Assembly: GCA_963704165.1 (NCBI GenBank)
Contig: CAVPHD010000009.1
Span: forward strand, 325,866 to 389,865
DNA length: 64,000 nucleotides
Source: an uncultured delta proteobacterium
GTDB lineage: Bacteria; Myxococcota_A; UBA9160; SZUA-336
Direction of reading: 5' to 3'
Position numbers and translations under genes: made by a program. Below are positions 4,110 through 13,446 of the stretch, piece by piece (position 1 is the first letter of the stretch; each line of letters starts with the position of its first letter). The notes under the pieces are model-generated. The model was given only the letters and a program-made list of their open reading frames with translations, was not told the DNA's origin and searched no databases.

Positions 4110-6761
<2,652 letters not shown>

Positions 6762-11352: not shown

Positions 11353-11397
11353 GCGCGGCTCGGATCACCCGCGACGGATGCTAAGGTCGGGTTCGTG

Positions 11398-12477
11398 ATG
11401 AGGATGCGCAGATCGCTGACCTCGGGCCTCGTCGCACTCGCCCTCCTCTTCGCCGGCACCGCGGCGAGTGATCCCTTTCCGCTCGGACCGCCGACGAGGG
11501 ACGGACCCGTACCGATCCGTGCCCGCTTCGACCTGCGCGATCTGAACAACGTCGACGAGGAAGCCGAAACCTTCGAGTTCGAAGGCGTGCTGACGATCTC
11601 GTGGCACGACACGCGGCAGGCGTTCGATCCGTCGCAAGCCGGCGTGGACGAGAAGGTCTTTCAAGGCGCCTACCAGTTCAACGAGGTCTTCGACGGCTGG
11701 TTTCCGCAGGTGCTGCTCGTCAACGAGTCCGGGGTCCCTGGGACGCAGGGCGTCGTGCTCCGCGTGAAGCCGGACGGCGAGCTCACGCTGATCCAGACCC
11801 TGAACGCGACGGCCGAGACCGATCTCGACCTGCGGCGCTACCCACTCGACCGCCAGCGACTCGACGCGGTCTTCGAAGTCCTCGGATTCGACGAGACGGA
11901 GATCGTCTTCCAGCTCGGCGCCGCCGAGTCCGAGCTTCGCGACCGAGCGATCCACTTGCCCCAGTGGGCCGTCCACCAGGTGCGAACCTCGGTTCGGAGT
12001 CGCCCCGCTCCCCATGCCGGTCGCACGGGGACGGCGTCCGCGCTCGTCGTCAGCGTGGATCTCGAGCGCGAATCCTTCTTCATGGTCCGCCTCGTGATCC
12101 TTCCGCTGGTCCTGATGGTGATGCTCTCGTGGTCCGTGTTCTGGATGGAGCGATCGTCGCTCGGCGACCGCATCAGCGTCTCGTTCATCGGAATCCTGAC
12201 GGCGGTCGCCTATCAGATGGTGGTGAGCGAGATCATGCCGCAGATCTCCTACTTCACGCTGATCAACGGCATTCTCAACCTGAGCTTCGTGCTGATGTGC
12301 GCGACGGTCGTGATCAATCTGGTCGTCGGCGCACTCGACAAGGTCGGCAAGATCGAGATGGGCGATCGCGTCGATCGGCGCTGTCGGGTGATCTTCCCGC
12401 TCGTCTACTTCGGGCTCGTCCTGCTGATGGTCATCGCCTCATTCACGCTCGTGCCCGAGACGCGATACGGGTCCTGA
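11398..12477 (+). CDS. Bacterial pentameric ligand-gated ion channel (GLIC/ELIC-like)
   Basis: Signal peptide; WFPQVLLVN; Pro-loop LRRYPLDRQ; four C-terminal TM helices; M2 GDRISVSFIGILTAVAY; M2-M3 loop MPQISYFT. Confidence 0.85.
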   Translation: MRMRRSLTSGLVALALLFAGTAASDPFPLGPPTRDGPVPIRARFDLRDLNNVDEEAETFEFEGVLTISWHDTRQAFDPSQAGVDEKVFQGAYQFNEVFDGWFPQVLLVNESGVPGTQGVVLRVKPDGELTLIQTLNATAETDLDLRRYPLDRQRLDAVFEVLGFDETEIVFQLGAAESELRDRAIHLPQWAVHQVRTSVRSRPAPHAGRTGTASALVVSVDLERESFFMVRLVILPLVLMVMLSWSVFWMERSSLGDRISVSFIGILTAVAYQMVVSEIMPQISYFTLINGILNLSFVLMCATVVINLVVGALDKVGKIEMGDRVDRRCRVIFPLVYFGLVLLMVIASFTLVPETRYGS

Positions 12478-12505: not shown

Positions 12506-13030
12506 TCAGCGCCGCGAGTAGCCGAGCTCTCCGAGTTTCCGCGCGATGTCCTGACCGGCGGTTGCGGTCTTCACGTTCTTGTCGATCGCGCGCACGACGC
12601 CCGCCTCGTCGATGTAGAACGTCCAGCGCTTGGCGAAGAAGCCGCCAAGACCCGAGACGCCGTACGCCTTCGCCGCTTCTCCGGTCGGGTCGGAGAGAAG
12701 CACGTGCTTCGCCTCGAGCGACTTCGCGAACTCGGCGTTCTTCTCCGCCGAGTCGAGGCTGACCATGAACACGGTCGCCCGGAAGGCCCCGATCACCTCG
12801 GCGCTGTCACGCAGCGCCGCGAGCTCGGCCGTTCAGCCGGGCGTGAACGCCTTCGGGAACCAGGCCAGCACGACGCCCTCTTTCCCGAGGAACTCCGCAA
12901 GCGAATGGGTCTTGCCGTCGGAGCCCTGAAGCGTGAAGTCCGGCGCGCGCGAACCGACGTCGGGATCGGCGGCGCGCGCGCCGTCCGCGACGCCGAAGAG
13001 AACCGCGAGCGACGCGAGCACGCGCTTCAT
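12506..13030 (-). CDS. Selenocysteine-containing peroxiredoxin (BCP/PrxQ-like), exported; Sec66 at TGA 12833-12835
   Basis: FPKAFTPG-TGA-TAELAAL places TGA at the peroxidatic Cys of PxxxTxxC; the frame continues into VSLDS, LLSDP, AKAYGV, KRWTFYID; SECIS-like hairpin follows. Confidence 0.85.
12799..12819 (-). promoter_or_regulatory. Candidate bacterial SECIS element
   Basis: CGGCGCTG-CGTGA-CAGCGCCG perfect 8-bp stem; apical loop starts 21 nt after UGA with G at loop position 2. Confidence 0.7.
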
Positions 13031-13446
13031 CCGGCGAGCGCCTTCCCGTGCTTGGCCATCCACTCGCCCATCGCCTTCTGCGCGGCCGGATCGAAGTCAT
13101 CGCGAAGCAGCGCGATCCGATCCCCGTCGAACTCGGCCGTCTCCACGCCGGAGATGACGAGATCCGGAAGTCCCTTCTTCGTGTAGGACACGGACCACGT
13201 CATCTTCAGCGTGTTTCCCTTCACCGTCGGCCTGGCGAAGTCGGGCGTGCGGCTGTCCATTCGGCGGTCGAAACCGTCGACTCCCGCCTTGAGCTTGGCG
13301 AGCACGGCGTCGCGACCGCGCGCGGCGGGGTCACCTTCGTAGACCGCGCCCGGCGTGAAGTAGGTCTCGAGTCGTGACCAGTCGTCGTCGACGAGGCTCT
13401 CTTCGAATGCGTCCGCGTAGGCGAGATAGCGATCCAGGATGGTCAT
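13027..13446 (-). CDS. SnoaL-like / NTF2-like family protein
   Basis: Short protein with FTPGAVY, GRDAV and C-terminal FDGDRIALLRD pattern. Confidence 0.7.
   Translation of the reverse strand: MTILDRYLAYADAFEESLVDDDWSRLETYFTPGAVYEGDPAARGRDAVLAKLKAGVDGFDRRMDSRTPDFARPTVKGNTLKMTWSVSYTKKGLPDLVISGVETAEFDGDRIALLRDDFDPAAQKAMGEWMAKHGKALAG

Follow-up and report, generated by a model that had tools for sequence, protein, structure and literature searches.

In the peroxiredoxin (Prx) family, a catalytic selenolate reduces the peroxide, is converted to a selenenic acid, and then needs an outside reductant. The experimental prototype of the selenocysteine (Sec) forms reportedly comes from Eubacterium acidaminophilum and is said to have been described by Sohling in 2001. 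The TxxU peroxiredoxin is a listed bacterial selenoprotein family (PMC1088965, PMC9312934, PMC13188914), of which the Sargasso Sea set contributed 43 genes (PMC1088965), and the accessible text of these three papers makes no mention of export of a Sec-Prx. A resolving Cys is missing from roughly one in three members of PrxQ, and in 1-Cys peroxiredoxins a small thiol or another protein takes the resolving role (PMC4749874, accessible text). Among solved structures, Mycobacterium tuberculosis AhpE (PDB 1xvw, 1xxu) likewise has no resolving residue, as is the case for the 1-Cys BCP/PrxQ proteins.

We analyzed a Prx gene within a 64,000-nucleotide stretch of DNA from an uncultured bacterium (hereafter, the window), which belongs to an 84% complete genome (G000, the host genome). 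The predicted protein shares with the Sec-Prx family (COG1225 Bcp / PF00578) the PxxxTxxU motif, an in-frame UGA, a 3' SECIS, the existence of Cys homologs and the PF00578 domain, but it adds a predicted export signal and has no Cys. With the periplasmic PprX of Caulobacter crescentus, compared here by its published description and not by sequence, it shares a 20-residue signal, a BCP-like fold, PxxxTxx(C/U) and the Arg, and the ScsB-type, PrxL-like and TlpA-like genes described for that system are also present in the host genome; PprX, however, has a Cys that pairs in a disulfide with a second Cys far from it, where the window protein has a predicted Sec and no second Cys (PMC3322552, accessible text). 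The structural model has a TM-score of 0.77 to AhpE and of 0.73-0.77 to BCPs, and the differences from AhpE and from 1-Cys BCP/PrxQ are Sec in place of Cys and the predicted export signal. Our literature search by title and start of abstract, mainly among freely accessible papers, turned up no report of an exported Cys-free form, nor of any Sec-Prx that is exported or comes from Myxococcota. The parts (Sec-Prx, periplasmic Prx and 1-Cys Prx) are each published, and this probably exported Cys-free branch is a modest variant of them. It extends the Sec-Prx to a likely envelope location; knowledge of Sec decoding is unchanged by it.

Gene structure and peroxiredoxin identity

The minus strand of the window reads from the ATG at 13030 to the stop codon at 12508-12506 as a single frame of 174 codons plus the stop (Table 1). 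The sole in-frame TGA is codon 66, in the context FPKAFTPG-U-TAEL, and GC3 is coding-like on either side of it (0.87 and 0.91). An open reading frame lister breaks the gene into 12833-13063 and 12506-12796, and a public protein collection lists the two fragments (65 aa and 96 aa) as proteins in their own right, neither of them named. Thus, the first-pass annotation was right to join the two fragments into one gene with TGA at the peroxidatic position, and to expect that gene callers would split it; the public annotation is to be corrected to one gene. There is no alternative start in codons 5-45, and the overlap of the start codon with the stop of the upstream SnoaL-like gene (ATGA) supports the assigned start. 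On the other side, a plus-strand homolog of prokaryotic pentameric ligand-gated ion channels (11395-12477; PF02931 and PF02932) is convergent with the Prx gene.

Table 1. Features of the Prx locus, in window coordinates
Feature	Position	Strand	Basis or remark
Whole gene, BCP/PrxQ-like peroxiredoxin with predicted Sec66	12506..13030	-	Pfam PF00578, AF2 model, Foldseek
Predicted Sec/SPI signal peptide, residues 1-20, predicted cleavage after A-R-A	12971..13030	-	sequence pattern, conservation
Active-site motif P59-x-x-x-T63-x-x-U66	12833..12856	-	alignment
In-frame TGA, predicted selenocysteine 66	12833..12835	-	TGA in 75 of 105 class matches, TGC/TGT in 30
Leu70, +4 position	12821..12823	-	Cys in sister U/C-x-x-x-C group
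Bacterial SECIS hairpin, 8-bp stem, loop CGUGA (12811-12807)	12799..12819	-	core conservation, folding
Arg135, conserved catalytic arginine of peroxiredoxins	12626..12628	-	invariant; aligns with Arg of solved BCPs
SnoaL-like gene, upstream; stop overlaps Prx start	13027..13446	-	not among recurrent neighbours

The identification of the product as a peroxiredoxin is strongly supported: it matches Pfam AhpC-TSA (PF00578; E 4e-30), and P59 and T63 are invariant both in the 121-row alignment and in 73 of 73 TGA orthologs. The superfamily signature, PxxxT/SxxC(U) plus Arg, is found as P59, T63, U66 and R135. The AF2 model (pLDDT 91.5, with residues 1-20 low at 53) is predicted to adopt the Prx variant of the thioredoxin fold, and its best Foldseek matches are Bcp1, BcpB and AhpE (TM 0.73-0.78; Bcp1 E 2.5e-15); by sequence, the closest solved proteins are Bcp1, Bcp4, BcpB and AhpE. 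The named database homologs are called peroxiredoxin Q/BCP, three of them from Myxococcota. No NCBIfam model reaches its cut-off: the BCP model (PRK09437) scores 76.6 versus 140, and the PrxU equivalog (NF040737) 47.9 versus 270 bits, and the protein is not PrxU. Because the BCP score is under its cut-off and AhpE is about equally close in fold, the subfamily label is loose, and 'BCP/PrxQ-like' is a statement of resemblance, not of certified subfamily. From its family, the product is predicted to act as a peroxide-reducing enzyme.

The in-frame TGA and the downstream hairpin

The host genome encodes selA, selB, selD and tRNA-Sec (anticodon UCA), all over curated cut-offs, and the selD gene itself carries a TGA; the four genes that the first-pass annotation had named for checking (selA, selB, selC and selD) are thus all present. 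Orthologs were counted at E <= 1e-38 among 201 genomes of the class and were found in 98 of them, with 105 matches, and a comparison of homologs at the catalytic codon, which had also been proposed, gave the division into TGA and TGC/TGT entered in Table 1. Among these uncultured bacteria, a class probably of the Myxococcota, the Sec form predominates. selA is present in 71 of the 72 genomes with a TGA ortholog, and the exception (G132, 85% complete) has tRNA-Sec; three selA-negative genomes of the class, identified by elimination, hold no ortholog. In the genus itself, the TGA form occurs in selA-positive genomes (G000, G007, G008 and G010) and the Cys form in the selA-negative G001, G002, G004, G005, G006 and G011, the copy in G005 being frameshifted, and also in the selA-positive G003. 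It should be noted that kin genomes are not independent, so that these counts are to be read as patterns and not as p-values. Beyond the class, a pattern scan of GTDB gave at least 119 TGA stretches, and those listed are titled Acidobacteriota, Planctomycetota, Verrucomicrobiota, Gammaproteobacteria, Myxococcota and others.

In 120 database homologs, column 66 holds C in 118 and W in 2. Eleven of the C-column homologs keep the SECIS-encoded peptide, and some of the C-column homologs may be Sec forms stored as C; therefore, the codon counts were taken from DNA loci only. The two homologs with Trp at the Sec column (P0040 and P0109) also have the SECIS-encoded peptide and are probably Sec genes translated with TGA as W.

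The hairpin at 12819-12799 consists of 8 Watson-Crick pairs, and its loop begins after 21 nt past the UGA. A bacterial SECIS model specifies a loop of 3-9 nt with an early G[G/U], a stem of 4-16 bp, a spacing of 16-37 nt and an MFE <= -7.5, and on every one of these counts the hairpin falls within the model as given in the accessible text (5-nt loop with G and U at positions 2-3, 8-bp stem, spacing of 21; PMC13188914). Its own MFE is -14.5 kcal/mol, and a comparable 8-bp hairpin follows 165 of the 69,621 TGA triplets of the host genome (0.24%). The hairpin forms when the 57 nt after the UGA are folded, as well as in the fold of 12740-12870, with pair probabilities of 0.96-0.99, but the region 12770-12840, folded whole, gives another MFE structure without the hairpin (z = -0.53, not significant). 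Because this one folding window disagreed, the support for the hairpin comes from conservation more than from energy.

Conservation separates the two forms of the gene. The counts for the hairpin, the N-terminus and the Cys residues refer to the 104 of the 105 class matches that were extracted, the last being read separately. All 74 TGA copies that were scored contain the 15-nt hairpin core, which none of the 30 Cys copies has; in the 75th TGA copy it was seen by eye. Synonymous sites of the hairpin are frozen in the TGA copies: Leu is always CTG, the preceding codon is always NCG, Asp is GAC, and Ser is AGC or AGT. For example, the loop Arg codon in the TGA copies is CGT (57) or CGG (17) and never CGC, a codon that accounts for 56% of the Arg codons in the host genome and for 11 of 15 at this position in Cys orthologs without a second Cys. 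These results bear out the earlier assignment of the hairpin as a SECIS. The closing pair is G-C in the class (74 of 74) and C-G in 78 of 96 distinct copies of a sister group described below, so that both bases of the pair have changed.

A nonsense pseudogene or a sequencing error would leave a similar split gene, and the assembly does show other apparent errors, namely, a ClpB-like gene broken across frames (window 4110-6761, minus strand) and a TGA within a glyA-like gene (G000:C3:116412). Both are probably assembly errors, and both names are ours, presumed from motifs. Such an origin of the Prx TGA is extremely improbable, given that the same TGA recurs in the GTDB stretches from several phyla as well as in 71 further genomes of the class, that the SECIS is confined to TGA copies, that GC3 is coding-like on both sides, and that the Sec machinery is complete. 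The conservation refutes a nonsense pseudogene. In one sediment DNA run, two exact 151-nt pieces of the locus were found, neither of which covers the TGA, and a low-depth contig of a relative from the same run spans the TGA codon with no difference there; we place no weight on this run. Taken together, the full machinery, the conserved TGA and the SECIS limited to TGA copies strongly support the earlier reading of Sec recoding, and UGA 66 is almost certainly read as selenocysteine.

A FastTree phylogeny was built from 155 rows with the trait columns masked; one truncated row of the class and one duplicate were omitted, and the sister group was represented by 35 rows. In this tree, Cys forms without a second Cys nest inside Sec forms four times, each time on well-supported branches, suggesting repeated replacement of Sec by Cys within the clade. 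The base of the tree is poorly settled, such that the direction (gain or loss) of the Cys at position +4 is not readable from it.

Predicted export and the absence of a second cysteine

The N-terminus has the layout of a Sec/SPI signal, with MKR followed by 12 hydrophobic residues and A-R-A; the call is heuristic and uses charge, hydrophobicity, A-x-A and conservation. Of the 104 class orthologs, 101 begin with a hydrophobic extension, as do 115 of 120 database homologs, and solved BCP and AhpE chains align only from residue 24 onward. The earlier proposal of an exported protein thus holds as far as the sequence pattern and the conserved extension carry it, and export of the peroxiredoxin to the periplasm is very likely. 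One other reading is that the product is a selenoprotein that is either membrane-anchored, through an uncleaved N-terminus, or cytoplasmic. A cytoplasmic role is conceivable, because no other BCP or AhpC was found in the host genome at its 84% completeness. Yet C6:6154 holds a cytoplasmic Prx5-like gene, there is no in-frame start near residue 21, and A-x-A follows a short h-region in 103 of the 120 database homologs, none of which has a lipobox or a Tat motif. This makes an anchored or cytoplasmic product very unlikely, and we retain export as the preferred reading. Searches of the host genome for other peroxidases gave no AhpC/Prx6 C-terminal domain, and GPx only under the cut-off.

The 174-aa product contains no Cys at all. 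As an observation in its own right, this was rejected as surprising, the chance of zero Cys at the Cys frequency of the genome being p ~0.24. The resolving Cys of the 2-Cys types of BCP/PrxQ, located in helix 2 or 3, is absent, and the mature part is free of Cys in 72 of 74 TGA orthologs, in agreement with the claim of the first-pass annotation that there is no resolving residue. The surprise that it attached to this was overstated: the TxxU Prx is already a listed family, and many PrxQ proteins, as well as Cys orthologs of the clade, are without a resolving Cys. Since a second Cys is also absent from 15 Cys orthologs of the clade, the trait belongs to the clade and is not specific to selenium. 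The protein offers a small Cys-free scaffold, of which Sec and Cys versions both occur in nature, and with which the benefit of selenium in the absence of a resolving residue, in an oxidising compartment, can be tested.

The sister group is an exported U/C-T-x-x-C group (Acidobacteriota, Planctomycetota, Verrucomicrobiota and Gammaproteobacteria). It shares with the clade of the window protein the WFPKAFTxG-U-T motif, a signal-like N-terminus, and a SECIS at the equal place with the same loop, whereas it differs in having Cys at position +4 and a closing pair that is mostly C-G instead of G-C. The +4 Cys is found in none of the 74 TGA copies of the class and in 105 of the at least 119 stretches of the broad scan; among these 105, the N-terminus is hydrophobic in 102. 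The scan loci (L038-L156) thus include widespread exported U-T-x-x-C peroxiredoxins, in which the second Cys is at +4, unlike the +5 of classical BCP. Five of the loci (L046, L066, L072, L119 and L151) are Actinomycetota Sec-BCPs with neither a signal peptide nor a second Cys, which have the same CGUGA loop in another stem register. A separate signal-less Sec-BCP with the classical U-x-x-x-x-C (L034, G019:C100) is encoded in a relative of the same family.

Candidate recycling routes

Our preferred explanation as a whole, to which we give moderate confidence, is as follows. SelB and tRNA-Sec would recode UGA 66 at the SECIS, as the machinery and the conserved hairpin suggest, and the protein would then be exported through the Sec pathway and cleaved after A20. 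By analogy to the family, a selenolate held by P59, T63 and R135 would attack H2O2 or an organic peroxide, yielding a selenenic acid. Because there is no resolving residue, recycling would most likely fall to an exported TlpA/ResA-like CxxC protein, whose N-terminal Cys would act via a mixed selenenylsulfide, and this donor would in turn be fed from cytoplasmic thioredoxin through a ScsB-type membrane conduit. The candidate genes for the recycling step are encoded in the host genome, and their pairing is proposed by analogy with Caulobacter, where electrons pass from ScsB through TlpA to PprX (PMC3322552, accessible text). Taken alone, this ScsB/TlpA route is reasonably probable.

ScsB is marked by a Lys that follows the first membrane Cys at a distance of eight residues (PMC3322552, accessible text). 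There are two ScsB-type genes in the host genome, both with Lys at Cys+8, and three exported or anchored WCxPC (TlpA/ResA-like) proteins are encoded at C12:189706, C11:28656 and C9:102759. One of the ScsB-type genes is followed by a gene that we take to be PrxL-like, from a motif and from the description in the Caulobacter paper. Hence, the earlier description of the periplasmic reductant as unknown went too far. A ScsB-type match was found in 73 of the 98 Prx-positive versus 42 of the 103 other genomes of the class, an association confounded by kinship and assembly quality. Of the 25 Prx carriers without a ScsB match by the query used, 24 have a DsbD/CcdA-family gene (PF02683), in a tally confined to Prx-positive genomes, and such genes serve other purposes too. 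These counts show availability, not pairing. No recurrent redox partner was seen among the 25 most frequent neighbour clusters (class plus scan loci, +/-1.5-2.5 kb), and the clustering of neighbourhoods reflected lineage-level synteny only. A neighbour near 6 loci is presumably glutathione-reductase-like, judging by a motif.

The lack of a linked partner gene would also fit an exported selenoprotein that a DsbG-like protein or a small-molecule thiol recycles, or one that cycles little and serves as a redox sensor or a near-stoichiometric sink for peroxide, and the resolution of 1-Cys peroxiredoxins by a small thiol or another protein is a precedent (PMC4749874, accessible text). We regard this as rather unlikely, considering that the full catalytic set is invariant and that all but one of the 98 carriers (97) have a gene for a membrane electron conduit.

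Alternatively, the same exported Sec-Prx could be recycled by selenium, either as a Sec-Sec homodimer or by a selenoprotein redoxin such as a membrane U-x-x-C protein. The 1-Sec MsrA of Clostridium oremlandii, which forms a dimer through the catalytic residue and relies on glutaredoxin for its resolution, provides a precedent (PMC4479559, accessible text). A membrane-anchored redoxin with three hydrophobic segments, H-W-U-P-F-C and a SECIS-like hairpin is encoded in the host genome (G000:C1:383907-384647, minus strand; L242:1408-2148); it has TGA in 15 of 15 class copies, reaches no NCBIfam cut-off, and is a possible selenoprotein substrate of ScsB. Within the genus, this redoxin is confined to the four Sec-Prx genomes, and in G124, G158 and G172 it adjoins a scsB-type match. 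Against this, it was found in just 9 of the 72 TGA-Prx genomes and also in 4 genomes without a Prx match, and it was rejected as an obligatory partner on the first of these counts. Moreover, genomes that lack selA still hold Cys orthologs with no second Cys, and there a sulfur-only route must suffice. Recycling by selenium is therefore unlikely, and the TlpA/ScsB route remains our preferred reading of the reductant.

A bolder version extends the selenium route to the whole class, as an envelope selenoperoxidase with one selenium and no sulfur that is recycled through a Se-Se dimer or the scsB-adjacent membrane selenoredoxin. We consider it fairly unlikely; if true, electrons would be relayed from selenium to selenium outside the cytoplasm by an enzyme that annotation overlooks, and the natural replacements of Sec by Cys, four at the least, would serve as comparisons.

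The host genome contains several other TGA-containing redoxins and candidate selenoproteins. Five such loci (C5:23912, the C7:167237 region, C2:119981, C4:200490 and C5:172728) encode W-U-G-C, W-U-P-P-C and G-U-I-F-C redoxins, a U-P-V-C protein and a C-F-Y-U protein that we take to be AhpD-like, all of these family names being presumed from the motifs.
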